NCBI GenBank assembly: GCA_040954595.2
Contig: CM082576.2
Coordinates: forward strand, 10,791,129 to 10,855,128
Direction of reading: 5' to 3'
DNA: 64,000 nt
DNA from: Balanoglossus misakiensis
Lineage: Eukaryota; Animalia; Hemichordata
The position numbers and the translations under genes were made by a program. Positions 3,480-54,400 of the stretch are shown piece by piece (positions within the stretch are counted from its first letter, which is position 1; each line of letters begins with the position of its first letter). Under the pieces are notes generated by a model. The model did not search any database. It was not told the DNA's origin and saw only the letters and a list, made by a program, of their open reading frames with translations.

Positions 3480-4047
3480 ATGGCGGAAGACTTCGCGTTA
3501 GGCAATGAATTATTCGTAGATGAGAAATACACAGAGGCTCTGGTAAGATACATTACACTACATTGGTCGTTTATTAACTGAATTCATTTCCAAAGTCTCC
3601 AATTTGTCGTGCCGTGAGCTAAATCCACCGCCTGACGTATATTGGTATTTTGGGTACAGTCACTGTAGAAATGCCCGAGGGATTGGCCATAAACACGACC
3701 TTCGGAGAGATGGAGCTAGCACTAGTACCCTTTACACCGTAAAATATTCCATTCTGCTGTTCCACTTATCAAATGTAATTTCGTAGGCCCACGGCAGATT
3801 GTCACAAGGGTGGGTTGGGCCGGGGTTGGTCCACGTCCTTAGCTAGCTACTGCTGGGCAACTCGCTTAGCTACATCCATGATGACGTCATTCACCTGGTT
3901 TGAACGTGTCGCGCCAGATCTGATGCGTGGATCTCTGGTACAGTTTGCACCACGGCAGCATTTCCATCTGATTCATCAAAATTTTGTCTTTCATTGTCAC
4001 TACATCTGTATTCTGCTCCGCATTAGTCAAAACTCCTGTATCTCAAC

Positions 4048-4103
<56 letters not shown>

Positions 4104-4140
4104 GTCATCATCATCATCATCCCCCTCCTCCTCCTCCTCC

Positions 4141-4180
<40 letters not shown>

Positions 4181-7100
4181 TCATCATCATTCATCATCAT
4201 CAATGTCTTACTGTTTTGTACTTTTAATCTACTGTATTGACAGGGTGCATTTACAAGGGCCGTTGAAACAGAGCCACAGAATGTCAAGTATTTCCTACAA
4301 AGGTCAGCGACCTTTCATGCACTGAAGAAATATCAAGGTACACATTGCATGGAAGTGATTTGCAAGTGTTTTTTTTGTATTTGTTTGGCTTTTATTTTGT
4401 GTCTGGTATAAAGTTGGCCAAACTGCTGCTTTGATTTGACATTTTTTTGTCTGTATGTTGTTTTTGTTTTTGTTTTTCAATACAGATGCCTTAAATGACG
4501 CCGTTACAGCAATAGAGTTGGACAGCCGCAATGCCATGGCACACTTTAGGAAGGGCCTTGCATTGTTTGAAGTCAGTGATGTACAGAATGCTTACAAGGT
4601 GAATGAATGTAAAAAATGTGCTGTATTAATTGGTCTTTGTCAGATTTGTCCAAGTTAAAGCCACAGATCGCCATGAGCATGTGTGGCCCTAGCATTTTGC
4701 AAGGCGTAAATGTTATTCTGTAACTAAAACACTTATTTTTGTCGTTGTAAATGAGCATGTATTCGTTTTGCCATAAGTGATCGCTGTTTGCTGTCTTCTT
4801 ATGAAAATTATGTGTTATACATCCTCCCTAATGCACAACTGTTGGGGTCTGTCATAGTGGTAGGGGGCCTGATTGCCATGTTGAGTACAGTGGGGGAAAT
4901 CAGATAGGAAACCGTGACATGGTCAAAATCATGAATTACTTCACTGAATTTTGTGCGTTGATCAATTTTTGTGTTCATTGATAGATTATTTCACCAATGG
5001 AATGACACACTTGAATTTACTGGGCTCAGTTGTACCAATGTATTTTTCTCATCCACAGGTCTTGCAAGATGGAAAGCAGCTAGAAACTGGTCCCACAGGT
5101 AACATAACATTTCTTATGTAACATTAACTTATAAGGTAGCGCAGAGTGTAGTCTGGGGTTGTATGTGTAACACACAGATGAACTCATCACTTATATTATT
5201 TGAATCCAGTAATTTTGAAATAATTTTGAAGTAATTTTGAAAGTTGTAAAGTCTCCACTTGTGTCTTTTCTCACAGCAAAGTTTGACAAATGGCTGAAGA
5301 AGTGCGAAGAAAAGATGGCGTCCCTGAAAGATATCGAGGCAAAAGCATTGAAGTTGAAAGCGCAAGGCAATGAGAAGTTCAAACAAAGAAATTACAAGAA
5401 AGCCGTGGAGTTTTACAATGAAGCAGTCCAACTACAGTAAGCACAAAAAAATATTCTAAAAGAAACTTGTTTTGTTTTCCATATTCATTTCGTAGATGGG
5501 CAGAACACCTCATAAAAATTGCAGATAATCATCATAATGTTGAAAATTCAAAGCTTTACCCCCTTCCGCTTGTTTCAGTCATCTTTCTCACACTTGGCTT
5601 ATTTCTGCAGGATTCCAAACGAACCCAAATCACTTATATTAGGCAACATGGCAAATGCACTCCATAAACTTGGAAATCACAAAGAATGTTTACAGGCAGC
5701 TACCACGGCGACGGAACTCAATCCAACGTGGAAGAAGGGTAAGTTGATCAATATACAGGGGCCTCTAACCAGAATTTCCTCACTGGCCGCCTTGGTGCAA
5801 ATTCTCTATTTACATTTGGAAGAAGTGTGGAAATTTTTCAGACTTGAGTGTGCATATTGATCCATGGTCATCATATTCTGTGAAAAAAAAAGAACTCAGA
5901 ATCTTTTCTTCTCTCCATGTGTCCATCATTTCCAGGTCAGTATTGGAAAGGCATGTCTCTGTTCTACTTGAAAGATCCAGAGGCGGCCAAAAGAGCATTT
6001 GAGGTAAGGACACTTAAATTATGTGTTTGTCATGGCAGTCTGTAATATCCATTGATGTGGTGTTTAACAGTACTCCAACGTAATTCACCAAATGACACAC
6101 CTGTCTACTGTTTTCTTTCCCCAGGCTGGCCTTCTCCTCGACCCGACAGATGAGGACTTCAGGGCCAAGGTCAACACCATACAGTACTGTCAAGATCACA
6201 GCGCGGACCTGGAGTCGGTGTCGCCCGAAGATCAGCTCAACATTTACCAGTCCGTTCAGAAGAACATGACCTTCATCAAAACAGACGTGGGTAGCAACTT
6301 TTGGTGTATTGCAGATATGGTAGTTGCTGTGGCCAGTGTCTTCGTGGAAACTGACAAGACGCTGTTATTTGTACTGTTAATGTGCATTTCAAAAAGAATG
6401 CTGGCAGCATGTTACCTTCATGGAATTCGTCACTGGGCACGGGAGAGTCTTGTTTACTCATTATATCGACTCTTCCTTTTACAATGGTCATGATTTACCA
6501 TAGACCACATTGGTTTCTTTCGTATTTTTACAGTCATTTGCCAAAGACATAATGAGACTGTCCAGAAGGGGTGAGTATACATCTAAAGTGAATGTTCATC
6601 CTGAGATATTTTCCCCTGCATTTCTTGAGAAAGTCGTGTTACCTCAGGAATTCAACAGGCATAACAATGTTTTAATTTTTTCTGTCAACTGTAGGCAAGG
6701 ATAAAGTTCATGGTACACAACCGACGATCGTAGATCACATGGGTGCGTTGCTTCTGACGGATGTTCCTATAAACGCGTAAGTTTACTGAAAAACCATTTT
6801 GTCTGTTTCCAGGCCATGACTAAAGAGCTCCTGTGAAATGAATGTGACATTTTGCATTCGTGAGTGCACACAGTGCTAAAAGTATTACCCTGATTTTCAA
6901 TCACAACCCCATTTTAAGCCTGTTTTGAAACCTCTTTTTTTTCCTTCAAATTTTGTAGTCTTACAGAGAAAGACATGCTTATTCAGCGCAAGTTGAAATC
7001 GGCCGAGATGCACAAGGTGTACATGTCGGTCATAGTGGACACGAAGACAGGAGCTCAGACGGTGATATTTCAAGACACGCCAGGACTCAATCAGATACAG

Positions 7101-7601
7101 AGTCTGGTCTTGAGGTAAGCCTTCACTTCCCCAGTCTCGAGTTGCTTTTTATCGGATGACTCGATTGACAAAAATTCACCAACTTTGAACTGAACCTTGC
7201 AATAGTGAGTGCAATTCACACCAATACAAGCGCATCAGATTGATTTTATGATTGACAGTTCTATCATAGTTATTTATTTTTAATTCTGAGAGAGAAATGT
7301 GGCAATCTCACTCATTTCGAAACTGCTGTGCATTTTTAAAATCCAATATGGCCGTAGAGGGCGCTGTTTAGCGTGCAGAATGTTTCAGAAAGATGTGAAT
7401 TTGCCGAACAGAGTCCCAGTACAGAGTTGGTGATCAGTGAGAAACCAGTTAAGTTCGACTAAAAGTAGTTGATTTCCCCAGATATTTTACTGTATATAGC
7501 AAATTCACCCCAATGTCTACTTTCTAATATTACTTCCCAGGTTAACTGCAGCCGAAGCAAGCAAGTCGATGTTTAATGAGCACCTGGCTAAGTACACATG
7601 A
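3480..7601 (+). CDS. 387-aa protein: SGT1/SUGT1-like N-terminal TPR domain + second 3-TPR domain + unrecognised C-terminal region; 12 exons
   Basis: Exons 3480-3542, 4244-4337, 4486-4598, 5059-5098, 5277-5436, 5611-5738, 5936-6003, 6125-6286, 6534-6570, 6695-6776, 6959-7114 and 7541-7601 are all GT-AG with consistent phases (1164 nt). TPR signatures include GNELFVDEKYTEAL, AIELDSRNAMAHFRKG, KAQGNEKFKQRNYKKAVEFYNEA and ATELNPTWKKGQYWKG. AATAAA follows at 7945-7950. Confidence 0.85.
4048..4202. repeat. compound (CAT)n/(CCT)n microsatellite in intron 1 of the TPR gene
   Basis: Direct reading; it explains the poly-His and poly-Ile ORFs at 3815-4325. Confidence 0.97.
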
Positions 7602-8677
7602 CAAATCATCATCACACCATTTTCAGACTTGTTGGCGCAACCAGGGCCAGAAAAGCCACTAAACTGAACAGCAATCTGCACTGCCAGTTTTCCCGGGGGA
7701 ACAGGGTACACTGTACTGAACCTGTCGAGGCAAATATTGTTGGGTGACTTGATTCAACAGACAGAACAGCGTGACTTGTTCCGTTTTCAGCGACACACAT
7801 GAGTGTTTGTGCAGTACATGTACCTATGTCTTGTCGTGGCAAACTCTGAAAGAACTTTGTGGACAGTCTTTAGTGTGGCGCGTTTTCTGGCCTTGGTTGT
7901 ATCCAACGCCTCAGTTGTAATTTTACATGTTTCCTAACTTAGTAAATAAAAACAACAGATGCAACTCAAAACTTACATGGTGTGTGTTTTTGTGCTTTAA
8001 TCATTAAACCGTTTGAGGTACCATAGCAACAGGTGGTTTTCGCCACAGTTCCCTGGTTACTACTGGTGACTAGCGATGACTAGTGATTTGTTTAATTACG
8101 ACTCCAGAAACCAGAAAGTTCCAATTTGAGCATTCTGAAGGACAGGAACTTGATACCCTATGACTATTTTATACAAATATGCTTGTAGCGCATATATGAC
8201 TACATTGGCACAATCACTTTATACAAGTACTTCTGCCCTGAGTTTTACTAGAGTTGTTGATAGAATATCATTAGCAGGAAGAGATGAGTTCTGAACACTA
8301 GCAACGCTGTGTAGTTTTGCAACCTAGCAATGGCTCCACTGGGGAAACATTCGTCTTGATAATGGCTGTAATAAAAACTAAAGCGATGTAGTAGTGTATG
8401 TTCTCGCATTATGCAATAGATGTGCCAAGTGGTGATTATTCCCGACTTTGTCCGGGAACTCGGTGTGGACATTGCACCCGTGTTTACAGCAAGGTCATTA
8501 CTGTATCCAGGTGATGTGTGACCCGGAGGTCATGGTGTCAAGTGAAAACGAAAGAACTTGGGGGTCTTGGTTGGGCGTGGCGGAATTTCGGGCTCCTTGC
8601 AGAAGGTCAATCAGCGCAAGTACTTTCCACTTGTATTAATTTGACTGTAAAACTTTTTTTTTCGAGTGTGCCGCAAA

Positions 8678-8848
8678 ATGGGTTCTGAAACCGAGCTGAG
8701 TGGAACTGCGGCGGTAGTTCTCTGTTCATTAACGTTCGTTGCCGGGGTTTTCGTCGGATGGAAGCTGAACTCGGTGAGAAGAGGTTACAGCGACTACAGA
8801 CGAAGGAAGGTCGAAGAAAAGGTCCGTCGGAAAGAGAGACGTGACTGA
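8678..8848 (+). CDS. MTLN: mitoregulin-like microprotein (56 aa, single TM helix + basic tail)
   Basis: ATG in a good context (AAAATGG). The protein is MGSETELSGTAAVVLCSLTFVAGVFVGWKLNSVRRGYSDYRRRKVEEKVRRKERRD*. Its core FVAGVFVGWKLNSVRRGYSDYRRRKVEEKV aligns without gaps to human MTLN FASGVLLGWQANRLRRRYLDWRKRRLQDKL (recalled). A GC-box-like GGGCGTGGCGG lies ~100 nt upstream. Confidence 0.75.
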   Translation: MGSETELSGTAAVVLCSLTFVAGVFVGWKLNSVRRGYSDYRRRKVEEKVRRKERRD

Positions 8849-11800
8849 ACGTGTCGGGTCAGGCCTAATAAACCCACAAGACAGGTCTTTCGGCCTGTAG
8901 ACGCAGACATAGGTAAGTCTATAATACCGTTTCTGGATATATCTTAATGTTTTACCTGTCTCTGTGAGTGTACCACCCTCCCGAAAGAAATGACAAATAT
9001 TTATGTTCAAAACACAATACAGAATACTAGTAGTACGCTTCACAACACGGTGGGGGTCACACGAGGTCAGGTCGGCGTCCCGAGCAACGAATCCACAAGT
9101 CTTTGTGCCAACCACTTCAACAATGGACGGGACAAACACCATTATCATGAGTTCCAGAGAGAGCTGCCAACAATTATTCCGATTTGTCCTGACAAAAGAC
9201 CGCCAATGCAAAGCCAGTTGGCGAATTATATCAAGGGATTCCAAAAGAGCAAATGAGTTACCGGCGGAGTCTATAGAAAATTAAGCCATCATTGTATGCG
9301 CAGAAATTTTGACTTGGCTTAATTGGATGACTAAGGTCGATAAATCCGCGCGGTTTTGAATAGACTGTGATGGGTGATTTAGCATAATTGTATTGGGACA
9401 TTTATTTTGGTATTTAATTATGGGTACAGACGTCGCTAATCACTCCAAAAGTGGATAGTCCACTATTCTCAGCAGACGACCAGGTATCATCGCCGCATAT
9501 ACATTTTCTACGTGACGGTGCGCACGGGGCCGTAGAATGCATACCCATGGGAACGACGTTCAACAAAAGAATAAAAGGCAAAATTACTAATAGAAACACA
9601 TATGACAGGTAAAATTCTTGATTAAAATGGGAGACCATACTACTGAACACATTGCTGACACTTTTATCTTAATCCTGTGTGATACCAGTCGGTTTGTCTG
9701 CTTTTATTTTTTGCAGATTCGGTGGAAGTTCTTCCTGTAGATGTAGCAAGAAGCGTGAAGCGTGAAGAAATAACATATCATTGACAGACGAGACCGGCTG
9801 CTTGACACAAATGGAAAGTTGACGATAAACGACATCTCATATAGTGTAAATCGACATGGTCTTTGTAGTTCACCTCTGGTAGAGTTATGATTGAGTCACA
9901 TTTCCCGCCACACATTGCCGCTGGGAAGATGAAGATGCGGAGGTGTAACGTGTACCCAGCCATTCCTCTCCATCTATGAGGAATCTGACATTTCACGCTC
10001 TCTATAGTTTTGTCTCACTTTTGTTTATTGATTTCTTTCCTTGATTTTATACTTCACTTTGTTTGTATACTTCATCACACTAGCCTTAAGATGCATGACT
10101 ACACAGTACCAATAAAAACTGTCTTTGTCTTTACCACAACACCGAGAATCATTGTATATCATGTCGGTCGGGTTCAAGAATCTAAAAATGTATGTTGGGA
10201 CGAAATCTCCGCAGACTCTATGCAGTCGGTGTTGAAGTATCAGCTTACCCGAGCACGCAATTTAAATTCCGCAGTTTATATAGAACCTAGTCTACCAAAC
10301 AATATACCCTAAACAACAGAACAGATCGGGCGTGAAGAAAATTGTGCAGAACTCCGACAATCATCACGCATGGTCAGGAAAGTGACGTGACGTCGGATGC
10401 AGACGAAAATCGACCTTTATTGCGAAATATGCAGTACAGATCATGCCTGTGCATCGTATATTGAGTCATGATATTTAGTTTTATTACTTTTTCCGACTGC
10501 AAGTTTTGTTTGGTCAGTTACGGTAGGCTTATTACCCACCCAGGCGATATCATCTTAATACGGTGTGCCAGACAGTTTAATTGAAAAACCACTCTGAACT
10601 GCACACACAGGATAGAACTGTAGCAGATACTTTTGTTTGCGGGTTAAATGTAGCGTGTACGGCATGCCAGAGCCAAATAAGCATTCTGATGCGATTTCTT
10701 CGCTCGATGAACCGTGTGCGACACACAGCGACCCTGTATTATGTTGAAAAGTCGCACCACAAAAGTCGCGGGGACCACTCCCGCCTTTATCCCAGCTTAT
10801 ATAGAACATGCATTGTCAGTATGCGGGCTGTCCTTTACAAACGTTAGGTAAAAAATAAATATTTGGAAATATTTCTGGTTAAAACTACCAAATTATAACC
10901 GAGAAGTATTAGTGTCAAGATTTCATAGGAAATTCGCATGTAGGCCACATCTGTACATAAAATCCTCAATTAACCAACGACATTTTGGGGATTTTCAGAT
11001 AACTCTATCCAAACATTGTTGCGTGTGTGGGCGCACGTATTTTTGGAATCTTTTGGTGTAGTGGCAATAAAATAAAACATTGGGGGCTCTAGTGGATTTC
11101 TTGCTGATGGAAGTGTGACGTCATCACTACCATTCCTAAAAAAATGTACACTCCAATGTTTGGCAGTATAATAACCAAAAACTGTCGATTGAAATCAACT
11201 GAATAGCAATGTTGGAACTTCAGGATTGTTAAACTAAATACCATCACATAGCTCCAATAACCAACATGATGAAAAATAGATCCAAACAACCCATAAAGAT
11301 TTCCCATAGTTATTTATTTACAAAAATGTAGTGTTGCATTATTTGAAAATGGCTACCTTGTCAAAGTAACCCCGGAATTTAATAAAATAGAGCTATCGTC
11401 CAGTCAAAACCGTTCAAATAGTTTGATCAGATTACCGGTAACGGTAAAGTCGACCGTGCTCCGATTTCTTATTCTAATCACAACTAGGAGCGGTCCGTCC
11501 AGTGGAGAAAACAAACAACCAACCCCGTTGCCTGAGATACTGCAAAGGGCGTGCGAGTTTTCAAGTGGTTTAAACAACACACCGCACTCGTGTTTCAGAA
11601 TTTTTGCGTTATTGCAACAGAACGGGTGAAATGAAATGCTACGGCAATATTACTCGATTGCAGTGGATTGAAAAAAAAAATGAATAAACCGTAAATTTAT
11701 TCATTTCACGAAAACGTGTTAATAAATACATTCAAAACCAAAAAATGCGAGTGAGTTTTTGTGATAACGTTACATCACAACAGACATTTTGTGAGTATAA

Positions 11801-14429
11801 TATTGAGGTATACGTAGAGACTAAAATTTAAGAAAAGCATTGGACTTTGATTTGCTCGCCTGGACTGGACCATGAATGACAGAGACGACAAAAAACAGTT
11901 TGCATGATACATCTGTAACTTGGCAAGAAAATGTAGAAGACGAGGGGCAAAATTACTCATCGATTAGGCCTATACACTTAAAACATTTACTGATCAGAAC
12001 TTGCAGATTTGCGGTGTGTGTTCTGACCAATGTACACTGAAGGGCACTGCACCGGTGCTTGGAAACCAACACCTGTGCATAACAACACACAACATGTCAT
12101 GATGTGCGAGGTGATAACTGCTGATAAAAACATTTGCATCAAATCACGAAAAATATAATCAACTGCGAAATTTACAATGTAGTTCATGTGATCACTCAAA
12201 ACTGATTGCGCGTATAAAATTTGACTTTTTCCCCCGAACACTGATTGTAGTAATAAAATACTCATTTTTAGGCTTTCGTTGCTCAAATTTCATTTTGACT
12301 TGATCAGTTTCCATTTTCTGTGTGCATATCTTCTGGGTCAGGTTTCTGTAGCTTTAAATACGATTTTTTTTAAACACTGCAATCTAGACTTGAAGCTCTG
12401 CAATCACGGGAGAAAATAATCACATGGAATACGACACGAAGAAAAAAGAAATGAACTGCAGTAAAAGGGCGAGATCTCAATTTCAGGCAGTACCATGATT
12501 GTATTTTCAACGTGATTAGATTATTTCGGGATAATTGCATATAAATAAATTGTTTAAAAAAGGGACGAGCATTGAGAAGAAACCCGTAATTGCTCCAAAT
12601 GTTTGAACAAAAAATAAATAACCATTACAGTGAGCGCATTGTATATGGACTCTCCTGATCTTTCATCCATTTTATCAGTGTGCAGTCATCCCAAAATAGT
12701 TCCAATCGCGTTTTTCATTACTTCAATCTGAAGAAGATTATTACAAATTAGGGATACATGTGTATTGTTCATTAGTTTGCTGGTGTGTCATCATTAGCAA
12801 TAATTGTATTTATACTAGTATGCATATGGTCACGAATATTTATGAGACGTGTGCTGTTTTTAAGGTTTTGGTATTCTGGCAAAAGCATCACAGATATGTT
12901 GAGATGGTGAATTTGATATTTGTTTGCTCAATATACTACTTAGGGTATTTCAGAGTAACTGATTTTTCTCAAGTGAGTTGGTGTCGGCTTTGGAAGCCTT
13001 ATGAGATAAGGGCTAGACTATTGGGCTGATCTATCTGCATAAAGCATATTAAATTTCTGCATGTATCAGTCCCTTCGCCTGTAACTTCAGGCTGGTTGGT
13101 CCACCACACTCCACCCTAATACATGTATTCTTGACGCTTCCACACCCCCATCTTCGCAGTTAGCAGTTCCTGTCTACCATGGACAATGGCAGGCTCAAAC
13201 CAAAGCACAGCGATGATGCAGGGGTTCAGAGTCTATACACACTTTTGTAGCGAGCTGACAGGGTTTACCGTTGATGTTTCGCCAAGCCGAATGAAATCCC
13301 ACTGGCCACTACCCTGAACACTTGATTTCGGAAATCAATTTGCATAGTTCATTCTGCATGACATGATTGGCATTTCAGAAAAATGTGTCATACAAAGCTT
13401 TAGCACCAATTATTCAGATCCACTGTTTTTTTTCCACAGACAACCCCAATCGCCAGCATCTACCCATAATTTGATATTTCTTAAAATACTGTAATGCTCT
13501 ACTGTACACACTGAAATATCACGGCTTGAGTTCATTCTATAATAATTAATTATGTGGCCGTCAAAATGCTGGTACCATATTACACATCCCTGGATCAACC
13601 ACTGTAGTTTTGAAAATTAAATTGTTCATCTGCGATTACTGCCAACATGAAGACGGACATCCACCAACTCCCTCATTCAGCACCCTACTGATTATTATCT
13701 AGTATTTCAATCGGTATTTCATAAATATTTGCACATCTTTTTTCAGATATACACTATAAATATTTGAGTTAACACTTCAAAACTTAAAATGCACATGTTT
13801 TACAATATCTGCATAGTATTTAGTTCTGTACGTCAGCCTTGTCTTAAAGAAACTTTGTGTGTGTGTTAGTGTAAGTATGTCTGTCTGTCCACTGCTTCTT
13901 TGCCAGAAATCAGTGGCTTGATTTCTGGATGGTTTTATAGCGACCTGACAGCATCAAAATACAATTGCCACTTAAAAGGAATGATATCTCTAGTACTGTA
14001 AGATACTACATAGTGTTCATTTGATGTCTTCACTCTGTACGGCTGGCTGCAGCAACCATCAAGACTGTGAACTGGTGACGGATGGACGGTTGGGTGGATG
14101 GAAGGCCACTGTCATTTTTTACATGTCTATGGCACTGTTGCTATTTATAAAACACCAAAACTGAAGTATGCAGGACTTCTGATGTCTTTCACGAGTTTCT
14201 GAATCCTCTTGACCATCTTCTTGGTGTAACACAGTCACTGGTACTACTGTCTTCTTCTATTGGTCGACACACCAGGTGCGCTCTTCAAAATTTGCGCCCA
14301 ACTGGCATGCGATTGCACTTAAAATGCATGCTGTGACCCTTCCCACAGTCACAGTCACTGGATGGAATTTTGTAAGAACTGAGCTGGCTGCAATTTGCAC
14401 TCTTTTTCAAAAAACAAGCAAAACTGTTA

Positions 14430-17400
14430 TCATCTAGGAGGGGCACTCTGTGCTCTGAGTATTTGTGGCATGTGGTGTTGGCACCACTCTTCGAAATCGT
14501 CCACGGCCATGTTGACAACTTTCTCACGAACAAACTGCAAGACAAAAGCAATATACACTGTTAACAGGCATCGGTGAAAACTGGTGGATTTTTACTTTTA
14601 CTCATATAATCCAAGGAACAAGTGGCACGATACATTGAATACGTATATTTATACCTCGACTGCTGCGCATATATCCGGTGAACACAGCTCCCAGCTCCTC
14701 AATCCTGACAAGATGTTCAGGAACTTCTGTGGTGTTATTTTCCTGCTTTCAATGTTTCCTATACTCTCCAACTTGTCCATTATGGCGATGATCCTTCTGT
14801 CAGCAATGAACCCAGGTGGTAAATTGTTTTTCAAGTCTTGAAACCTACAAGGAGAAAAGTTACAAAAAGTTGGTGGATTCTGAAATTTTATTCTCCAATT
14901 CTTGAAACTCTACACAGAAAAGAGTGTAAAAAAGAGCACCCGTGTAAACCAGAATAATTGAAATATTTATGTGAGAAATACATTTGAAAGATTCTTTAAA
15001 TTCAATGGGCTGCAATTTTACCATTTGATTTCTTCATCTTGTTTTTTCCGTCGTTTCTTTTCTTCTGTCAACTCGTCTGGATCCTGTTCAGCCAACTTGA
15101 TCACCTTTAACTGTTCACTAATGTGCTTCTTGTGAGTTATTGCCTTGAACTTCTCCTCACTTCTCTGTAATCGTTTTCTACACAGTGTTTAAAGTAAACA
15201 AGAACTTAGAGGGTCCTGAAGAAAACAGCTGTGGAACTTAGGGGGTCTTCGCTCAAAATGGGGGACCCAAGTGGCCTGGCTACATGACGGGTGACTTAGG
15301 GGATCTGAATGAAATATGAATAAACTTAGGGGAGCTGGACACAAGTCTTGCTATCTCAGAGTGATCGGTTCATGAATGTTTTAGGTTGACTAAGGCAGCT
15401 TTCTAATCGACTCAATAAAGCCACGGGTGCTCAGTCAGTCTAGTAAATAAATCAACAGGTATGGGGGGATGAATAAGTAAACAAATGAATAAATAAATCA
15501 TAGTGGCTAGGTTTTCTGTGTTAATCATGCAGAGGAGCTATTTTCTGCTTCTTTGAACGTTTTATCTGTGATCCGAGTTTAGTAAGACAATGTAAAAGTG
15601 TCACTACCGGCTCTGAAGTATTGACTCCTCCCAAATCCAGATCCAAAACATCAAATACCGGTAATTGTAAGAATTATACTCACTTTTCCAGAGCCTCCAA
15701 TTTATCATGAAGCACCAGGGATTTATCTTCAACGACATCATTGAATTTGTGTCTCATATCAACGGCTATCAATCCGTACTTTTTACTCGGGAAATTCACT
15801 TTGTCACCGGCATTGGGAGGTGCACTAAAAGCAAGCAAGCACACGAGGAATTCATGAACGTTTCTAACAGAATTGGGAATTAACAGTTGTGGTCAACAGC
15901 ATGAATAAACAAAATACGCATCTTGAAAACGCACAGAGCTAAACTGTCCTCGTACCCCAACACTCACCTGACAGAAAGTCTGTTAATATTTTAGGGGGAA
16001 AAGAAAAAGAAATAGGGTCATCATCCGAACTATCAGCTAAGGGAATTACAGATTTATCTAACTTTACTGATATATGTCATTGTGCATTTTCTTATTTACC
16101 TTCAATGTGAAGAATTTGCAAGTTGGTCTGTTTGGAAACAGGATGGTGACGGTGTGTCTGTATCTCATCACGTGCACTGAACAAACGTGGATTGCAAACT
16201 GTTTGTGATGGTTAATTTTGTGCCAAGGTATTATTTACTAGTCAGAGTGAGTGAGGGAGGGTGGTGATGAATTAACACCAGAAATTGTGCATGAGGTACA
16301 GGGCAGGACAAGGATCGAGCTCTTTTACTTTGGATATTGTGCATTGGATGGAGCTGTGTACTTTGATGTTAAAAACACACAGCGTGATGTGTATACATTC
16401 CAACCAACGATACTGCTGACCACTGTAACTCGACAGACATTTACCTACATACAATCTTAATACATGTACATGTATTACAATTATAATTTTTGCTGAATGT
16501 GTATATAACACAAAAACACACATTTAAGCCCCACAAGCTGCCACTTGCATATGCACTCATACTTACAGTTTGTATTACTGGTTAAATACTTCAGTGCATA
16601 CATCTGTAATGGACCTATCTAAGTTTCAGAGTATGATCATGAAAATAATGCAAAAAGTGGCAGCTAGCTCATATGGGGTTTCAAACTGGCTTTTACAGTG
16701 CTTCTTAAACGTTGCTGCAACACTCAAATCAGGTCTGACCAAAAAACAACCAAAACACCAACTAGCCCCCACCTCTGTGCCCTCTGCCTGGTTGTAGACT
16801 TCAGCCACGTCCTGATCGCTCTCTCTGATGTCCTCGATGGCGGTCCTCTAGTTTCCAGTTCTGTTTGCTGAAGGAAGGAAAGAAAATACATGTACATGCA
16901 TTAGAGTTCATCCTGCTCATGGCTGAGTGCCATGAGTCATGTGTAAGAGTAATGGACTAGTAGCAATGAAGAGAAATCTTCACTGGTGGCTCTTCGGATG
17001 GAATGACAAAAAACAAAGATGATTTCTTGAATCTAATGTGACAAATATGGTATGAATATTTTCTTTCATTCTCTGTAAACACTATACAAACAGATATTTC
17101 TCACTGAAATCCACATCAAGAAAAACTATATCTGTACACCACTGGGAATGAAACATTTTCTGCGCTAAAAATACTTGGATCACATTAACAAGGTTACAGG
17201 TGAAACTCACAGACAACGGTGGTTTGACTTTTCTGGGTTGTGCTTTCACAGTTGCTGTGGTCTGTGTTTCTCTGATACTTCTCACACTACAGATGGAACT
17301 GGCCCTTTGCCTGCAATACAAAATCATCATATATGAAAGGGTTGAGAGATGGAATGCGAAAATAAAACAGACTCAAAGCGAACCGGTTTCAATTTACAAA

Positions 17401-20400
17401 ATTCATTCAAGCTTTTCAAAGCTATTAGGTACTGCAAGGGTTTCTATAAATAGGAAGCACAATTTGGGATAAATTCAACCCACATTTAGATTTTGTTATG
17501 TGATACATGTATGTATAAAGAGCAAAATGGGGCATCACTTGTAAATTGTAAATTGACAGTACAACTGCAAGTGTTACTGTATTTAACTTTGAACGACATG
17601 TGTCTTTCTAAAACACCAAGATCACCTCATGTACATGTGGGCTTCAAACCTCAGGTTGCTATGGAGACCAGATTGAGAGAGGAAGTCATTAGGGACAACA
17701 GAAACAGACAGTGTTTTTTTACCTTCTGGCTAAAGCCTGGGGATCTTCTACATTTTCATTCGCGACATTGGAAGCGGTGTCATACGGCCCTGAAATAGCA
17801 GATTACATCCAAAATGAAGTCATTATCAGCTGGCATTTGGAGTCAAGTAGAACTACCAGTACATGTAGTATGGGTATCACAAGTTGAAACCTCAAAATTT
17901 TCTGAGATATTATTAAGATCTCATCAAATTTATTCAATTTATATGTCAACACTGAAGCACACACTGTTAGACTGTTAGAAAAAACCCAATATACACATGC
18001 ACCTACATTTTTCATACTCTGCGTCTTCATCGACCCGACTCATCACATCGTCGCGATCTTGTAAATAGTTATCGGGAATGACAGGACCGGGAGTAGACGA
18101 ACTCTGGTTACTCGACAGAGTGGATGGTGTTCTTTGAATCAAGCTACCGGCCACGCCCGCAAACGAATTCTTCCTTGGAGAGCTGCGTAAGCTGCCCACA
18201 GCCGACGCCAGCGTGAGGGTATTGCCGAACGACCGTCCAAACCGTTTTGACTAAAAAACAAACAAAAGTGACTGTTGTTGAAAGTTCCAATTTATCATTT
18301 CTGGCTTGCACATTCTTCGATGCACAGCTGTCTTCAAAAATCAATACTGCACAGACAAAGGGACTGACAAAGAAGATTCTCTGGCTGCAATTTCCCCATA
18401 ATGCATTGAATGTCACAAATCAGTTTTTCTCTGTCTGTAAGTGATTATAGAGTCGATCTCTAGCAGAAATATATAATTTGGATCAAATCAAAGTGTCACA
18501 TGACTTGGTGAATTACATGTACCTCTCAATGAACAGCAGCCAATTTTAAGTCACATCTTACAAAACAAGAAATTACCCAAAGAGTACAGTAGATTAGTAG
18601 AAATTGACAGATTGAAATGTCTGGTGTCACAGAAACAAAGGTTGAATACGGGGAGTTTACTGATACCAACCTTGTCATAGAAATCTCTTTTATTCGTCAA
18701 AAAGCCCTTCCATGTCACATCGATTTGTTTATCTCTCACAACCTTGCTTGCTTTGGTTTTGTTAAATGTGTTCTGCTCAAGTTCTCTGCAATAGAAGGGC
18801 AACACAGAAGTGCTCATTAAGAATGACCTTTGACATATGTCACAAAGGTTAAATCACCTCATCCTCGATATTAAAACAGCTGATGCGTGTCCATCAATAG
18901 CCCTAATTCATTTTAAGTGCCGGGAACAGATGATAGTAATAGATTACATTCAAGGACATACATAAGGACCCAGATTAAAAACTTGTTTATTTTTTGCAAA
19001 GATGGCAAACATCCAAACCCAGTCAGGTGGGTAAAGAAAGTTAATGACTGTGAAAAATGATGGTGATATTGAAAAACAATGTGTATACAACTAGTAATTG
19101 ACCCTCTCTTAGTGGTAGCATTTCTGACGTCTTCATTTGTACATCAATATCTACAAACAACTATTGTGTATATAACTCACATTGCTGGGCTGAAAATACA
19201 TGTACAATGTACTGTGATTTGAGTCTTAATGGATTTTAGTGTCTCGGTTGCCTGATTCCATGACAGCTTAACACTTACTTGTATTTGATATTCCAGCTCT
19301 GCAGAATGGGACCCACTGCATATGGCGGATCCACGTTCATCGCCTCCAGCAGCCAATTGACAGCGCAAAGCTGGCGGAATATGGAGTCTCTGTGGAAGGC
19401 GAGAGTACACAGCCCATCAGTTTGGATATAATTTACATGTCATGGGAGGTCCTTCACTGTGGAAATCTTGTGGTCTCCAACAGTGATCAATACCCACAAA
19501 TTGTGGTCATTTCACTGTGGTTGTTAATATACATTTATTCAAAGTACATTTCAATTTTTATAACACTACATTCTTTTTTTCCACGGATCATGGTGAACGA
19601 CAATTTTCAAAAGTTCCCTATTGCACTGCATTTCAAATTTGCCATCTTAAATCTGATACTGAACATAAACAAACAATCAAATCAGAGATCCACTCCACAG
19701 AAAAGCTTATTATTTTTATTCAAACTGAAATCAGCAGAAAAAATAATGGCAGCATAGATTTCAATAGCAGAGCCTAATTTTTTTCATTTCGTTGTGAGTT
19801 TGTTTGGAAAAGAAATCTTGGTTGGCAAGACGATTGTTATCTCCGGTAAATTTTAATTAAAACTCAAGGCCTGGTTTGTGATTGTTGCTAAGACACTCCA
19901 TCATCCTCAGTAAACAAGAGGATCATTTTGAGACAGTTGTATTGACACAAACAAATGAAATCAATTGTGTCGATCTCCAGCACAGTCTAGGTGAAACAAT
20001 CATCTTTAGATTGAAACAGATGAATACAAAAATGGGATTTGATTTGAATGACATAATGTAGTGTTATGACAGATAACCTTCTTGTTCTCATTTTCACTAT
20101 TGCATGCAACGCAGTTTTAAAACAAAACAAGCTGCTGTACACTTTCATTTAAAAAATTCATGTATCTTTTTATAAATTGTCATCCTTTGTGTGTTCAGCA
20201 CATAATTTTAAATGAAACAGCAGGGACATTAATTTAAACATAAAGCATGGATATATATCTTTTTTTAAATGCCAATTTTCTCCCATTATCTAGCTACCTG
20301 TTGCGTCTGCTGTTGGGTGATACCAAAATAATGGGAGGGGTGTCTGGAGTCATTTTACCAGGGGTAATTTTTGCTGGGTTAAAGAGTTCTGCGCAAACAC

Positions 20401-23400
20401 TTACTTGGATGGGTCTTCGCGAATTTCGGTGTCTGGGTGGATGTTGATGTTTGAATGGCAGGGCGTGTACGGCCGGGGAGGGTCTACTTTCTTCTTTTTC
20501 TTTCTCTTTTTAGCGCTAAACGTCGACAATTCGGTCAGAATTGATTTCGACGGTGACGATGTGCCATATCGGGGAGTCTCATCGTCGGTGGTGTTCAGCT
20601 CGGTCGCGATAGTTCCATCGTCGTTAAGGGTGTTCGTCCTGAAAGAGAATCGCAAGGGAAAAAATAACAATGGGCGATTTCCTGAAATTTTAATGATCTG
20701 CCCCAGGGGTCAGGGATACAGTTCTCAGCCAACAACAGATCCGACGTCTTTGCACAGAATGGTGACAAACTGAGAACCGATTGTGTCATGATAAATTTAA
20801 CACATTCTGCGGTTTAAAGAATCAATACAGAAACGTGTCCACAATGAATAATTTCCAAGTCTACGTTTGTAGATCATATATATTGCATTGCCGCCTCGGT
20901 TATTATTTAATGGCTTTTCTCATGAAACAATTATGGCACGAAGTTGGGCGTGTTGCTATGCGGGGTTACAGGTCTGCTGGATGGGAACGAAACAGGGATA
21001 ATTACTACTGCAAATACGGAATTGGTGAACCAGGGTGGGGGAGGGGGAGGGGGAGTGCGCAAGGACCGAAAGTTAATTTTTGGTTTCTTTTTTGGGGTTA
21101 TGTAGGTTGCAATGCCTGCTGGGACGTGGATGTACTGAAAACCCCGGACTCGGTAATTTAGCGTTGTCATTGCACAGAGAAATTCAACGCAAACACACAT
21201 GCACTACTGGTGAGAATTTAGTTTTGGGGCGTATAACACCAATCCAAACACCACAACATTGGGTGATGGCTGCCAGACAATTTAAGTACGAGTTCAACGC
21301 ACTGAGGTGTGTAAATTTACAGAGCTGGCACAGCAGAGCGCACTGACTGAATTCAAACAAACAGCCACATACATGCACTCGGGCCAGAATACAGTGCAAC
21401 GCTTATGCAAATTACAGAGGTCCGGATTTTTTCAGTACATTGAAACTTACAGCAGAGATCATCTGAGTACCAGCGTGTAGGGTTCTAACACCATGGCAAC
21501 CAACAGTGCCACAGCCAAAAGAAAATCTTTATCTTGGCTAAATTTCTGAAAGTCAGTCTTCGCCAAAATGTTTTGCTTTGTCATTGAATCTGTTTAGTTT
21601 TGTTTATAAAAAAATAAGAGAAAATATTTTTGTAAATAAAATTTCAGTGTAGTGGCCGTAGAGCAAACAATTGACAGTCAGTCAGATATTTCATTAATTC
21701 CTGTTATCTGATGTTGCAGATTCCTTGCATTAATCAACAGTCTGCAGTTGTTTGATTAGCTTTCAGCCCCAAACAGAAGCCAAAATACGAGACTATCCAT
21801 TCTTTTGTCATGGTATCTAAGACGTCCTATTTGCTTGTCTCTACACGCTGCTCAAATAATCTCCTTTTGGAGTTTCTCAAATTAACTGTGTTTCTAATAT
21901 TGACAGACAGAGTTCTGAAAGAAACTACTGGGAGGAGGGGAAAGCCAAAGAGAACACGACAAAAAGTTGTCAGGTTCAGTATTCACAGTCCCCCAATACA
22001 CATTTAGTGTGTGGAGGGACTGCATGGGACCTATATACAGACACTATCACTGCGGTCAATGTTGCTTAAAATCAAAATCATAAAAAAATCACACACAACA
22101 TGAAATGGAGAATGAGTCATTTCTTTCATGCATGGAACACTCTCTTGATGTCTACATGAAGTTTTTTTTTTCCAGGAGGGATCCTTCCTACATATGCATA
22201 TACAGCCACCAGATTGCAAATTTTCAGAAGGTGGCAAAAAGAACAGGGATTTGGTTGAATTGTCACAGTGAGCTGAAGGTGTGGGGGGGGGGGGGGAAGA
22301 AATTTGATCTTTTTTTTTTTAAGTTTCAATTAATCTCATAAATTTGACATGTCTTATCTCAGGATGTAGAATGTTCCGTCAATCGAAAAAAAAACACTTC
22401 ATTGTAAACATCTTACAGCTAAACAGACATTTAGCTACAAACAAACAACGACAAAATTTCATGCATGGGATTAGCATAACAACATAACAAACAAGACAAC
22501 AGGTTCATGCAAGCATGCCTCCCGACAAACAGGCCAACCATGTCCCCTACTGGTCAATGACATGCAAGGTTATAAACACAATAAAATCTGATGAAGCAAT
22601 GTCGCAGGCAAGGTGTTAGACAAAAGTTAGCGCCAGTGATGGGTGCAGGACGTGCGGAGTGCTATAATTCACCGCAGAGCAAAATGAAAGCTGGTTAGAT
22701 TAAATACATAATGGGTTAGATAGATAACTACATGATGCTGTCTGCAAAAAGCTGGGTTTTGTTGTTATTGTTCAATCGTTGTTTATTGTTGCTGTTGTTG
22801 TTCAATCTTACCGAGAAAAGGCCACTTCTTTCCTGTCATGTTCGTGGTCACTAAAATGACCGTCCCTGTGCGCCATGAATAAACTGCGGGTAAACAGAAT
22901 CAGCTCTTTTTCAGCATTTTCAGCACATCTCTTTTTTTGGCAATTGCGGTTTGCGATGTGTTTGTTGCAAACAAGAAGAGTCCCAACTAACATCTTAACC
23001 TTTTATGTCCACTTTTGGCAACAGGTCAGTCTTAAAAGTTTTAGTTAAACAGCCTATCAATATTACCGAAATCATATCAAAAGCAAATGACTTTGTCCTT
23101 TTGAGCAAAACGGGCCAGTTGTACAAATATGTTCCAAATTTGGAGAGAAAAATGGACATGAAAGGGTAAGTTTGTGTAATACCAACAAGAAGTCCACAGT
23201 GCTATCAGCCAGCAATGTGATTGTAGGAACACTGGAATTCAATAGCACCAACCACAACGTCTATCACACACAAATGGGCCATGTTGATATGCCAAATATC
23301 AACAAACGGTACAAAAAATATGAAAAGTTACAGTTACTGTCATTGTAAATGCCACACACAATGGATATATAGTTGATTGAACAGAATGAGCTGATTGATA

Positions 23401-26400
23401 TAAATTGCGCTGTAATTCATCTAAATATAGTTCGTTAAAACATCGCATTTACCATTTTGCCAACTAGTTCAATGACAATATTTTTTTTCACTCACTAAAA
23501 CCCAGTGTATGACAATTTTATGTGCTTTAATACGGGTCTCTGTGTCATAAATATAGCATTTAGCAGATCAGGCATAATTAGACATGCATCCTAAATTTTA
23601 TAGACTTTTTTCTCCTTTATAATATCTCTCACACATGCATTACAGTGATATCCAAACATTAAAACTTTAACAAACTTACATTTAACAAGATATAAATAAG
23701 GTTGGAATACAAAATACATGTACAAAACAGAAACCTAAAAGAAATATCAATAAAGGAATTGACTAAGGATTCTATTTTATATAACTGTAAAAACATTTAA
23801 AGCATTGGAAAAGGGGCACATGTAAAATTGACTACAGCTGAAACAAATCATTTTATGCACTGTAATATCGAATGCATTATAAAAGTAGTATGGAAATATG
23901 TATATGAATGTTAAGTATTAATTTGCATATAGACTTAAACGTAATGAAGTTATGCTAATGCATCACAAATAAAACAAATTATTCCAATATTGCCTCTAAT
24001 CTGTCTTTTCTCTATGAATTAAGATAGCGGTTAGGCAGTTTTAAATGAATTACTAGGCGGACCAAATGTGTCCATGTGTTGCTAATTTTTAATGTACCGG
24101 TACCGCTGATCAGGAACTGGTTCTCAGGCAAACTTTGCCCAGAATTAACCCACACACAGGTGATTTAATCTTCAATCAAGAGTGGAATGTTTTTTTCTCA
24201 TTGTGGAAGCTGTACAGTACACACAAATCCAGGATGGTAACAATGTAATCAAAAGCGCTACTCGCGTCTTTGTTTCGGGCGGACAGTAGCAACCATTCAA
24301 TATATCACCGAGGTGTCTGAGACCCCATTGTATTAATGGTGGCATGACACGACACTACGCTACGTGTGAAGCTGACTTCTGTTACTCTTTTTGCCACGTT
24401 GTATAACAGCTCCTATCTGTAAAGACTCAATTATGTCCCCAGCATGCACAAACACACTCAGCTTCACTTTCTCTTTTTACCTTAAATCCACTTCTTCCTC
24501 AAGTTCATCATCCGTTTCGTCTTCCGATGAGCTGGGAATGTGCGCAGGTTGCCACTGACGACGGCGTTTCTCCATCAGTCGGTTCTGTTCGATTTCTTGC
24601 GCATTTCGCTGTTAAACAAAAAATAAACCCAACCATCCACGTCGTGAATTTGAACAATCTTTAAAACTGCAATATTTTCATGATAAACGGAGCTAGAAAA
24701 CCCTGAGAATGGAAAGTCGACTCAATAAAAATAACTCTAAATTGGGGCCCCAGTTGAATGACCACAGGACAAAGAAAATTCCTGACTGTGAGACAGACAA
24801 CAAGGCATGACACAAAGCTGGCCCATCATTGTGACATGGACGAAGAAAGTAAACCACTCAGATGAACACACTTAATTACGGAGACCGCATAAGATTTAAA
24901 AAAAAACCACAATAACTTACCCTGGCATCATCTTGAGTTCTAATGATTGAAAATAGACCATGTCCAAGTTTGACCGACGTAATCATTCGCCTGTAAATAA
25001 AACACAGGAGGTTTGCGAGTTCAAACATTGCCGGGACGGTGTCAACAGTGAAGTCACTCATTACATTCTTTGCTTTATTAGTATAATACTTTCAATTTTC
25101 TTTGCTTGCTCGCCTGACTACAAGTAAAGGTTCGAAAATTAGGCTTTTCAATGGGATTGGAATTTAGCAGAAAATAGGGAGGCTGGTATTATTACAGCGA
25201 CAAATAAATTCCACATGAAACTGAAGTATGTTTGCATTCACTTAAAATTCACTCAGGTTCTCAGACAGGTCTAGGGCTGCAGTCTCCTTCAGAATGGACT
25301 GATCAAGATTTTTTCAAGAGCATGAATGTTGCACCTTTAGATGCAAGAACAATGTACTCTGAGGTTCCCCAGTAATGGAAAAGAAGAGTTCTGTTTGACA
25401 GTCAATGAAAATGAAGTTGAGGTTGGCCGGCCACTTCAGAAAGCTTTTTCTGAGACAGACAGCTCAAAGAGGCACAGCAAATACCTGGCTTTGTAAAAAG
25501 CGTCAACAAATCTCAGTGAGCCGTCAAAGTACACGAAATATCAATTACTGTTTCATCAATGAAAAACAATCATTCGCATTTTAATGATTTAAAAAAAATG
25601 ATTTTCTTGGTCATGTGCAGTGTTTGAACTTTCAACTAAATTAATGAAAAAAAAAACACATTAAAGTAAAATGTGCATTTGACAGTAACTGAATAGCCCT
25701 CACCTTCCATCTGTTACTTCTCGACTCAGCGTTTTCTTATTTTTTGTTGATTTGCGCCGGAGTATAAACGCCTTGGGCTGCGCCTGGTTCTCCTCCTCTT
25801 CCTGCTGTTCTCGAGTTTTGCGTTCTTTCTCTTTCTCTTTCTCCTCATCATCGCTGCTTGATCTGTCGTCCACTTCCTCCTGTCACAGAAATATACCCGT
25901 AAATATTGGCTCAGAACAATTTCGCTTATAAATATTGGCTGAAACAACACTATTTCCCCAACTGATAGGCTGAAACAACACTATTTCCCCAACTGATACA
26001 AGCACATCACGTCTTTCAGTCCTCTCCTTAATAAATACAACTTGGTATCGTTTGAAGGTATTAATTTCGTACAACTCTCAATCTTATTCCAATTGTGATT
26101 TCATTTGTAACTATGGTGACTATCACTGTGGTAACTGTCATCTGCATGTATGTTAAACATCATTACAGAATTGAAGCAGGGTGCCAATTATTGCAATTAC
26201 TGGTACACTGTAATAATGTACCAACATGGCATGTCGACAATATTATTTACATTGAAAAGTGACTGTCAGTACATTCTCACTAAGTGTATGGAAAATCTTA
26301 TATATCCTCATTAGTGATGATTGGGGAGTCAATATTATTGCGTGCAAATATTGTTTTGCCATTGTCCCAGTAACAATAGAAGTAATAATTTGTCAATAGC

Positions 26401-38799: not shown

Positions 38800-39717
38800 T
38801 CAATCTAGTTCGTACACAAAGTGTATACCCTTCGCCTTTAACTCGGCTTCGACCTTCTCGTCGAACAGTTGGCTCTGTTTTTCGGTGAAGTGGTTTTTCC
38901 AGTCGCCGACGATCCCCTTCCTGAAGAACGGCGACTTCTTCGAGTCGTAGAAGACCTTTGGTATAACTACCTTATCCTTGCCGTGGCGACGGAGCTCGTG
39001 GAAGCCGCAGGACTCGGAGACCTTCTCGATGGTCTCGTCGCTGACGGGTTTGTCGAGGAAGTTAGCCACCATGTGAAGAACGGAGGGAAAGTCCAGTTTC
39101 ATCTGTTCGTAGGTGATGTAGAGCATGTCGACCTGGTCGCTGTTCTCCAGCCAGCCGGTGACGTGCCGGAACCAGGAGCCGTAGATCACCTCGCCCTCGA
39201 TGAAGTCGCCGATGAACTTGTCCCACGCGTCGTCCGACTGCAGGAAGTGGTAGCCGCGCAGCATGTGGAAGAGAGACACGCAGCTGTCCTTCGGGTTCCT
39301 GGCCACGTAGATCACCTTGCACCGCTTGTCCCGCTCCCCCTGCTTGGCCTGCTTGGGGAAGTAGTCGAACGGTAAATGGCTCTTCATCAGCCGCGGTGAC
39401 GACGCCTTCACACACTTGTCGTGGCCCTCCACGCCGGGCAGACTCGGTATGTCGAGCACGGGCACACGCCCCTTCTTGCTCCGCTTGCACGTCCCCCAGC
39501 TATTGTACATCATAGACAATGCTATCTGCAGCCAGGTTGTGCCGGATTTCGGGAAACCGACGATGAAAACGTCGTCGCTGCGCGTGTGGAAATTCTCGAC
39601 TTTTTCCATCAGTTTTGTGTCCACTATTATGGGCAGTGGCAATCCCTTATATCTGAACATAGTACTTCCATATTGTCCTAGCTTACCCACCATCGATAGC
39701 AGCGTCCCCAGATCCAT
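38800..39717 (-). CDS. cytosolic PAPS-dependent sulfotransferase (SULT family), 305 aa, single coding exon
   Basis: Uninterrupted ORF with the 5'-PSB motif GFPKSGTTW, catalytic His in RLMKSHLP, the 3'-PB motif YVARNPKDSCVS, and C-terminal FFRKGIVGDWKNHFT. The first ATG is at 39717 (the ORF track starts at an upstream TTG). Confidence 0.95.
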   Translation of the reverse strand: MDLGTLLSMVGKLGQYGSTMFRYKGLPLPIIVDTKLMEKVENFHTRSDDVFIVGFPKSGTTWLQIALSMMYNSWGTCKRSKKGRVPVLDIPSLPGVEGHDKCVKASSPRLMKSHLPFDYFPKQAKQGERDKRCKVIYVARNPKDSCVSLFHMLRGYHFLQSDDAWDKFIGDFIEGEVIYGSWFRHVTGWLENSDQVDMLYITYEQMKLDFPSVLHMVANFLDKPVSDETIEKVSESCGFHELRRHGKDKVVIPKVFYDSKKSPFFRKGIVGDWKNHFTEKQSQLFDEKVEAELKAKGIHFVYELD

Positions 39718-39787
39718 TTCCGTGATAACGAATCGCTTCAAGACTATCCAGATATCTTAACGGGGCGAACTCGATCCCGATTATGAC

Positions 39788-51404: not shown

Positions 51405-54400
51405 TTATGCTTTCTTCCATGGTTTCTTCTTGGTCGGGTCCTGGTGACAGACCAGACACAGAGATCCTGCAGGCCTGGTGGCTGTGTATCTGAAATGATA
51501 AGGATCAGAAAAAATGTAAAATTGACGCATTGAAATCATAATCGTGTTGTTCACATTTGAGGTTATTTTACAAAGAAAAAAAAATCAGCTAGCCATGAGG
51601 TCAACTTTACCATGATAGAGCGACATTACACTCATTCATATTAATAAACATACCGGTATATATGTACTGTATGTTAGCTACTGGATAATGATACTACGGG
51701 ATATAGCATACTAGTCTTTTGTTCAAAAATAAGCACTAGATTTACCCCTATTTGAGGGTCTTGCAGAATTCGTTGGACACTTTTTGAGCCTTTGGTAGTA
51801 AAAGAACTTACCCCCATCCCTGCGGAATCAGGACAAAGTCATCTTTCTTAACTTCAAATTTCTTTTTCTCTCCTTTTCCGACCTGCAGTTCTGTTTCACC
51901 TTCCTGTGAGAGAATGGAGATGGTGCAATTATTTCAGATTTTCAAACAGAAAGTTTGCTCTTTTAATGTCCCAGTTGATTGATGAGTCGATTCCATGATG
52001 AAGCATATCCAAGCTCATATCACTGTGGTCATTACTTTTTGGCAAGCACCCTTGCCACTGTCACACTGGATAAGCTAAACTTGAAAGACAACGGTATAGT
52101 TACCATGACCAGAAAATTATATATCATACACTCACCAGCTGCCACATTAAGACTTCTGCATGTTCACTGCAAAAACTCTCCTCCCCAGGGCCCCTCATAG
52201 TAACCTTGTGGAGAGAAGTACAAAATTTTACTCTTTAAGGACTCATACGTTTCTGTATCTTCCTACACATCCCTTAAACAGCGTTCAGCACAGGTTTGTA
52301 AAATCTTGCATTAATTCTACAAAATACAGTGGAAAGTGTCCTTCTTCTTGATGAGAAAAACCTCATCTCTGATACTCATGCAGGCTTCGTACCGAGTGTT
52401 TTCACTACCTCTGCAAGAGCGATGATGTCATTAAAACTTGTGCACACAGATCAGTGACTCACGGTGAACTGATAATGATCCGCGAACATTGTCTTGTGTC
52501 CCTTGCTGTTGATTTCTTCTCTGTTCTTGACCAGCCAGTCTTTGAGAAGAAACGGGGCTTCGACGGTGGTTTCCACGTCAACATCCACTGGTGGCTTCTC
52601 AGGCAGCTCCTCTGTGTAATAACAAAATTTCCTGTTAATGTTTTTGAGCAGGGCAACGACTGGCCAAGTAATCAGTAAAACCGGATACAAATTTCTGGTA
52701 GATTACACCTGGGATCCAGTGATTTACTGGCAGGTATGAGATGGAAGCGAAATGGTGTTATGTCAGGGTTAAAAACATTACAACTTTGCTGTCACTTGAT
52801 AGCAAACTTCAATGCAGCAATATTCTAGGATGGACTCTGAATAGCCAGCCAGTGTTCGAGTGATTACACACTTTTATCCCCATTTTCCTATGTAGAGGTA
52901 CAACGTTACCACAATACTGGTATGGAATGGAAGCCAAATGGTGTTATGTCAAGGTTAAATTGACTGCTGTTTGCAGTGATAAATAAACGTTAAATCTCCA
53001 TATACACTTGCCAGGAATAGGTTTTCCGGTCTTGTACTGCTCGGATTCAAAGAACCCCTTGATGATTGGAGCCAGCTGAGTTCCTAGATCTTCACAGTGA
53101 AACCATTTCTCATACAGCGAGTTTGTTGTTCCATCCACATAATATCTGAGTAGACAGAATGTTAGCCATTTTTTAATTGGAGGTTATAAAGAGCATGCGA
53201 TGGTATTTGATAGTGGATAAAACTTGTATGTCTGTTATCTGACAATATCCAAAGTTAACACTTCAATGAGTCTGAATGACTGATAAAAACTACAACAGAA
53301 TGTGCACGCACACATCTGGAAGAACAATTTTTATGGAAGAAATGTTAGAGGGAAAATGCTGGAGTACTACATGGAAAAGGCCGAAAGCAGACAGTCAAAT
53401 GTAAAATGTGACAGTAAAATGTGCTGTGATTCACAGCAGTTGCATTACAATGACTCAGACAGTCCTTCAGTGGAGTGAAGATGATCTCTTTCCAGGCACA
53501 AAAACGGCAAACACTGAAAGCATTGTTTGTATTCAACCCCGTCACAAAAGGGACCAAAAGAGTTATGCAAGTCCACCACAGTGAAGACAGAGAAGACAGC
53601 AGATTTTATATCAGTAACCAACAGTGCTTGAGAGACTGACCTGAGACCATCGAGTTCTTCTTCAGCACGATCACGCTCCATAACCAATCCGATGGTATCT
53701 TTCTGCCTCTGAGGGGAGTGAGGAATCCTGGCTGGCAGAAGAAATACCTGGGGGAGGGGGAGGGGGAGGGGAGAAAGCATCACCATTGTAATTAAACGAG
53801 GATGAACTAAACGTGTGAAATTCAGAATATACAAAATCTACACTCCGATGATACATGTCTCTTATTTTTTTGCAGGTTAACCTGAGCATCATACCTCGCC
53901 TTCCTTGATGGGGACATCGCGATGTTTTCCTTGCTCGATAATCTTCAAACACATGTCACCTTTGACCATGTAGAATAGCTGGGAGGGTGCAGAGAAACAT
54001 TGTTTGTTAAAACAAGCCTGGCAGCATGGGGAGGGGTAGGGGAAAGAGGGGTTGCAGGTCAGGTCAGGTATTATGCTGCACTGATGTACGTGTATGACCA
54101 GCTTGGGGTAAGTGATGCATAATGACTGCTCTCTCCTGAGAGATTATCACTCAAATTCTAAAAGAAGTGCAGACTGTAATGTATGGTCTTATATTGTCAA
54201 GTACTGTTTTCCTACTCTCTGTTCTGACTGATCAAATATTCACATCACAACACATTCACAGTTATTTTTATGCCACACTCAGTCCAAACAACAGAAACTA
54301 CTGAGCATGAGCAGTATGTCCTCTCTGACAATGTGCTGGTAAATCTAAAACTAGAGCGGTTTGCTATTTTGATGTTTCGCTTCCATTTTTAACTGCAGCA

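Follow-up and report, generated by a model that had tools for sequence, protein, structure and literature searches.

Gene content of the locus

The window analyzed in this work, i.e., the whole stretch of 64,000 nucleotides from the acorn worm Balanoglossus misakiensis, harbors on its forward (+) strand an intact open reading frame (ORF) of 56 codons (8678–8848), which is the subject of this analysis. Upstream of it and on the same strand, a Yip1-family gene (about 1090–2861) is followed by a multi-exon gene embedding several TPR repeats (about 3480–7601). The former was recognized by the Pfam Yip1 profile on two exons with an E-value of about 0.006, a match falling below the cut-off, and presumably resembles YIPF4; the N-terminus of the latter resembles, in our assumption, that of SGT1-type TPR proteins, and the one frame scanned for its C-terminal part retrieved no Pfam family. 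A long (CAT)n/(CCT)n microsatellite (4047–4200) lies within one of the TPR-gene introns and gives rise to spurious poly-His and poly-Ile frames. The genes downstream of the ORF lie on the reverse (-) strand and comprise a DUF4698 gene (about 14650–25000) with two exons above the Pfam cut-off, which we take to be CCDC60, an intronless cytosolic sulfotransferase gene (38803–39720) placed 30 kb from the ORF, and the exons of a 3-hydroxyanthranilate dioxygenase gene (51800–53840; Pfam 3-HAO, E = 2.7e-13). The sulfotransferase is conserved across acorn worms, the identity being 93% with Ptychodera flava, 86% with Glandiceps talaboti, and 75% with Saccoglossus kowalevskii; according to their lineage, P. 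flava and G. talaboti are enteropneust hemichordates. Used as a taxon marker, this one gene likely assigns the window to an acorn worm close to Ptychodera. Four longer frames of the + strand, located between 8948 and 11626, retrieved no Pfam family, and the region 10100–12000, downstream of the transcript predicted for the ORF (see below), is CpG-undepleted and apparently gene-free.

The ORF runs from ATG to TGA and encodes 56 amino acids, with 0 internal stops, whereas the opposite strand contains two stops in the same frame. In-frame stops occur only a few codons upstream of 8678, so that the frame has no room for a 5' extension and the ATG at 8678 is the start. The context of this ATG (8672–8681) is strong, with A at -3 and G at +4, a combination found in 29 of the 241 small ORFs of the window. 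The ORF was also considered as an exon of a longer gene, a reading that was rejected because its frame is closed by stops immediately 5' of the ATG, begins and terminates with codons of its own, and lies beyond the end of the TPR gene (about 7601).

The most hydrophobic window of 19 residues corresponds to residues 9–27 (mean hydropathy 2.04), and a single transmembrane helix is predicted at residues 9–28 (8702–8761), ending with G27-W28 (Trp28, 8759–8761). The helix is followed by a basic C-terminal tail (residues 29–56, 8762–8845), in which 13 of the 28 residues are K/R and 5 are D/E. AlphaFold, run without an alignment, predicted one long helix embedding residues 4–53, with a mean pLDDT of 75, a pTM of 0.43, and a pLDDT of about 92 across residues 11–30. 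The preliminary description of this ORF (an ATG start, 56 codons, and a hydrophobic helix ending with GW) is therefore borne out by translation and hydropathy, and the pattern that it reported, N-x-x-RR-x-Y-x-D-aromatic-R-x-R-x-x-x-x-K, is present letter for letter, the motif residues being G27-W28, N31, R34-R35, Y37, D39, Y40, R41, R43, and K48.

Match to the mitoregulin family

Mitoregulin, also referred to as MTLN, MOXI, LEMP, or MPM (genes LINC00116 and 1500011K16Rik), is represented in Pfam by the family PF22002. The comparison of the ORF with this profile, which had been set beforehand as the test on which the assignment could fail, gave a score of 33 bits (E = 5.3e-8), i.e., 6 bits above the curated gathering cut-off of 27 bits. 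The match spans residues 16–50 (8723–8827), which fall on profile positions 13–47 and score 32.4 bits alone; positions 1–12 and 48–56 of the profile have no match in the ORF. The runner-up Pfam family had an E-value of 0.017, and the weak matches to unrelated membrane families ranged from 0.017 to 0.12, so that the E-value of MTLN is more than five orders of magnitude lower than that of the runner-up. If the HMMER E-value is taken at face value, the number of MTLN matches this strong expected by chance is about 5e-10 per window and about 1e-4 across 250,000 windows.

Since profile scores can be inflated by the combination of a hydrophobic helix and a basic tail, two controls were performed. 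In the first one, the ORF was split into two halves overlapping by three residues: MTLN was the sole Pfam family retrieved both by residues 1–29 (E = 0.031) and by residues 27–56 (E = 0.037), and both halves kept the +3 offset of the full-length match. The fact that each half picks MTLN in the same register implies that the match rests on more than hydrophobic composition. In the second one, the 150 most hydrophobic of the 241 ATG ORFs of 40–85 amino acids present in the window were scanned; the ORF at 8678–8848 was the only one matching MTLN at E ≤ 1, none of the other 149 doing so; apart from it, a single ORF, corresponding to a DUF4698 exon, exceeded the curated cut-off of any family. Three further ORFs of the window that have both a hydrophobic stretch and a basic tail, all of them scanned, gave no MTLN match. 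The gapless alignment to MTLN claimed in the preliminary description finds indirect support in the constant +3 offset to the 56-position profile, observed for the whole ORF and for four sub-stretches.

Contamination by vertebrate DNA was ruled out, the sulfotransferase of the window being hemichordate-like and the MTLN score marginal. On the basis of the sequence comparison, the ORF is very probably a true homologue of MTLN. As for the idea that it represents a pre-vertebrate orthologue, family membership and a non-vertebrate host are supported by the profile match, the two controls, and the sulfotransferase, while strict orthology is something that we infer.

The search for relatives in protein databases did not retrieve any further member. 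No relative was found among proteins of 30–98 amino acids, in a database where three other acorn worms are represented by annotated proteins, and none of the 51 candidates of 99–2000 amino acids was a relative; 1.84 billion protein representatives gave 0 matches at E ≤ 0.001, and 591 pattern matches in JGI metagenome contigs yielded 0 confirmed cases. The ESM Atlas contained no MTLN cluster and nothing scoring at least 0.9 (best scores, 0.84 and 0.79), the recognition value of the ORF (1975) being lower than is usual for known families. A sequence search of the PDB retrieved three designed helical proteins (E = 0.001–0.006), which were judged to be chance helix matches. With three acorn worms covered, these blank searches equally fit a close orthologue that is unannotated in those species and one that is absent from them; the former would fit a gene of just 56 codons.

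Predicted transcript and upstream region

The splice-site matrix predicts an intron of 804 nt in the 3' UTR (8913–9716, + strand), whose donor lies 64 nt past the stop codon, followed by a non-coding second exon (9717–10116) with stops in all three frames, which extends up to an AATAAA polyadenylation signal (10111–10116, + strand). According to this prediction, the mRNA would be composed of two exons, with the entire ORF embedded in the first one. With a generic matrix, the donor at 8913 ranks 4th among the 3857 GT sites and the acceptor at 9716 ranks 8th among the 3291 AG sites of the + strand. The donor score (6.8) can be compared with 5.9–7.4 for five donors of the neighboring Yip1-family and TPR genes, and the acceptor score (8.2) with 5.0–7.2 for five acceptors of the same genes, the reference acceptors excluding coordinates 6124 and 7542. 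A strong start context, a donor, an acceptor, and an AATAAA occur together in this ORF only, out of the 241 small ORFs, with thresholds that were chosen after seeing the locus. A second AATAAA (8867–8872, + strand), located 19 nt past the stop, might represent the end of a short unspliced transcript. A search for sequencing runs covering 8400–9100 retrieved none, an outcome that is neutral as to transcription.

This exon layout, itself a prediction, constitutes a line of evidence separate from the protein match. Mouse Mtln consists of two exons, with the full ORF in exon 1 (PMC6066340), and the accessible text of PMC6091870 places the human conserved region in exon 1 of the major isoform. The predicted junction of the acorn worm gene, 64 nt after the stop, exceeds the 50–55 nt of the nonsense-mediated decay rule, for which many exceptions are described in the available part of PMC13223760.

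The region 8480–8677 (+ strand) is a likely promoter plus 5' UTR, as suggested by a CpG rise and a GC-box-like motif. Indeed, the CpG observed/expected ratio is 0.4–0.7 over the upstream genes and reaches about 1.0 from 8501, a rise that would fit an unmethylated 5' region; the high ratio persists up to about 12000 and is not specific to the 56-aa ORF. The only GC-box-like motif on the + strand of the window is located at 8573. In addition, the sequence upstream of the ORF harbors three AGGTCA nuclear-receptor half-sites (8492, 8527, and 8604, + strand) clustered within 120 nt, and the predicted intron contains two half-sites arranged as a direct repeat with a 4-nt spacer (9054–9069, + strand). 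AGGTCA is not enriched window-wide (39 occurrences vs 31 expected), and the local cluster is a post hoc observation; our assumption is that such a cluster near the ORF might reflect ERR- or TR/LXR-type control.

Function, alternative explanations, and taxonomic range

As far as the accessible text of the relevant papers goes, vertebrate MTLN is a single-pass mitochondrial protein of 56 amino acids that binds cardiolipin (PMC6091870). Its location and partners are themselves disputed: an outer-membrane topology, with the N-terminus in the intermembrane space and the C-terminus in the cytosol, and an association with CPT1B, CYB5B, and CYB5R3 are described in PMC10469944, while earlier work assigned the protein to the inner membrane (PMC6091870, PMC6066340). 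MTLN is also described as self-associating, the Trp25Val substitution disrupting self-association (PMC11732159).

We consider it probable that the ORF encodes a 56-aa acorn worm member of the MTLN family, which is likely orthologous to vertebrate MTLN and predicted to be a single-pass mitochondrial membrane microprotein. Functional orthology appears quite probable, and it is fairly likely that a mitochondrial, lipid-linked role has been kept in the acorn worm. On the basis of vertebrate work, the helix and its basic flank would act as a signal anchor; if the outer-membrane topology of PMC10469944 applies, then the short N-terminus would be exposed to the intermembrane space, with the basic tail on the cytosolic side. 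The tail would bind an anionic lipid such as cardiolipin, Trp28 (the inferred counterpart of human Trp25) would support self-association, and the peptide would likely oligomerize and tune the lipid-metabolizing partners CYB5B/CYB5R3 and CPT1. A structure prediction for a four-copy complex scored 0.01, against a mark of 0.32, and speaks neither for nor against binding.

A different possibility is that the ORF shares a common ancestor with MTLN and performs another job, in a different membrane or with no role in fatty-acid metabolism or respiration, a role that vertebrates may have added later. The absence of a match at both profile ends and the presence of Tyr at the position of human Trp37 might point in this direction, and the conflicting vertebrate results on location and partners imply that function is not simply transferable. 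However, the length, the helix-plus-basic-tail anatomy, and Trp28 have all been kept, and the mouse protein can replace the zebrafish one at 71% identity, according to the available text of PMC7214441, which argues for functional conservation within vertebrates. On the whole, a true homologue with a different job appears unlikely.

One could also suppose that the ORF is a convergent look-alike, i.e., a small, signal-anchored membrane protein of unrelated origin or an ORF arisen by chance, with a score inflated by the helix and the basic tail. This idea draws on the shortness and biased composition of the sequence, on the weak matches to unrelated membrane families, on the failure of the protein searches to find homologues, and on the lack of micro-synteny (see below). 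Nevertheless, it hardly accounts for the distance between MTLN and the next family, for the two halves agreeing in register, for the three ORFs of similar build that do not match MTLN, and for a predicted exon layout matching the mouse one, and we regard it as very unlikely. Finally, that the ORF is a non-functional relic or a silent copy of an MTLN-family gene, as the lack of a relative among annotated hemichordate proteins and the junction beyond the 55-nt rule might suggest, is scarcely credible in the face of an intact frame, intact splice signals, a strong start context, and a CpG-rich 5' region, and even a relic would place the origin of the family before the vertebrates.

A recent review states, in its accessible part, that invertebrates are believed to lack mitoregulin; the abstract of PMC6421467 defines MTLN as "conserved in chordates", the alignments shown there being of vertebrates, and the available text of PMC7214441 mentions conservation from zebrafish to human. 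The accessible portions of PMC8416628, PMC12075139, and PMC13019689 add nothing on the taxonomic range of MTLN. No report of an invertebrate mitoregulin was found in the literature searched, subscription papers and database taxonomy pages falling outside the search, and MTLN, mitoregulin, and LINC00116 are mentioned in none of eight supplementary files of PMC11175523, a paper on hemichordate genomes, other gene identifiers being possible. Pfam/InterPro or RefSeq may already list invertebrate MTLN members. Hemichordates are not chordates, and thus the locus falls outside both "vertebrates" and "chordates"; a non-chordate member of the known MTLN family contradicts the published statement on the range of the family.

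Judging from the sequence, the MTLN gene likely predates vertebrates, and a hemichordate member puts its origin at the deuterostome ancestor or earlier. We also lean towards the broader idea that mitoregulin is an ancestral bilaterian mitochondrial microprotein, whose length, self-association tryptophan, and 3' UTR intron would have been kept since before the chordate-ambulacrarian split, and which would have been overlooked in invertebrates because of its size. If this idea is correct, then the few residues common to the acorn worm and human proteins would delimit the functional core of MTLN, the mechanism of which is still a matter of dispute. Vertebrate MTLN sequences are too similar to reveal the key residues, and the comparison with a distant member restricts the core to residues 16–50. 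Moreover, the acorn worm peptide permits a direct rescue test of whether MTLN is an outer- or inner-membrane protein and a lipid binder, an oligomer, or an enzyme adaptor.

As to gene order, MTLN adjoins NPHP1 on duck chromosome 3, according to the available text of PMC11067773, whereas NPHP1 was not found near the ORF in the 29 long frames, 150 small ORFs, and 11 stretches of the window scanned with Pfam. The local gene order is thus not common to the acorn worm locus and vertebrate MTLN, the adjacency to NPHP1 being a supportive and not a defining feature. We assume that YIPF4 and HAAO, to which the Yip1-family and 3-HAO genes of the window may correspond, are located on human chromosome 2, like MTLN, which provides a weak macro-synteny lead; in a cattle gene list containing both YIPF4 and HAAO, MTLN was missing.

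The comparison with vertebrate MTLN thus reveals both differences and similarities. The acorn worm gene, which belongs to a hemichordate, has the TPR and DUF4698 genes as neighbors instead of NPHP1, and its helix starts three residues later. Like vertebrate MTLN, it encodes 56 amino acids, with a single N-terminal hydrophobic helix and a basic C-terminus, and scores above the Pfam cut-off; the exon layout predicted for it, with the whole ORF in exon 1 and an intron in the 3' UTR, would agree with that of mouse Mtln. Finally, if the numbering of the profile is assumed to be the human one, the +3 offset makes Trp28, at the end of the helix, equivalent to human Trp25, and the aromatic residue Tyr40 equivalent to human Trp37.
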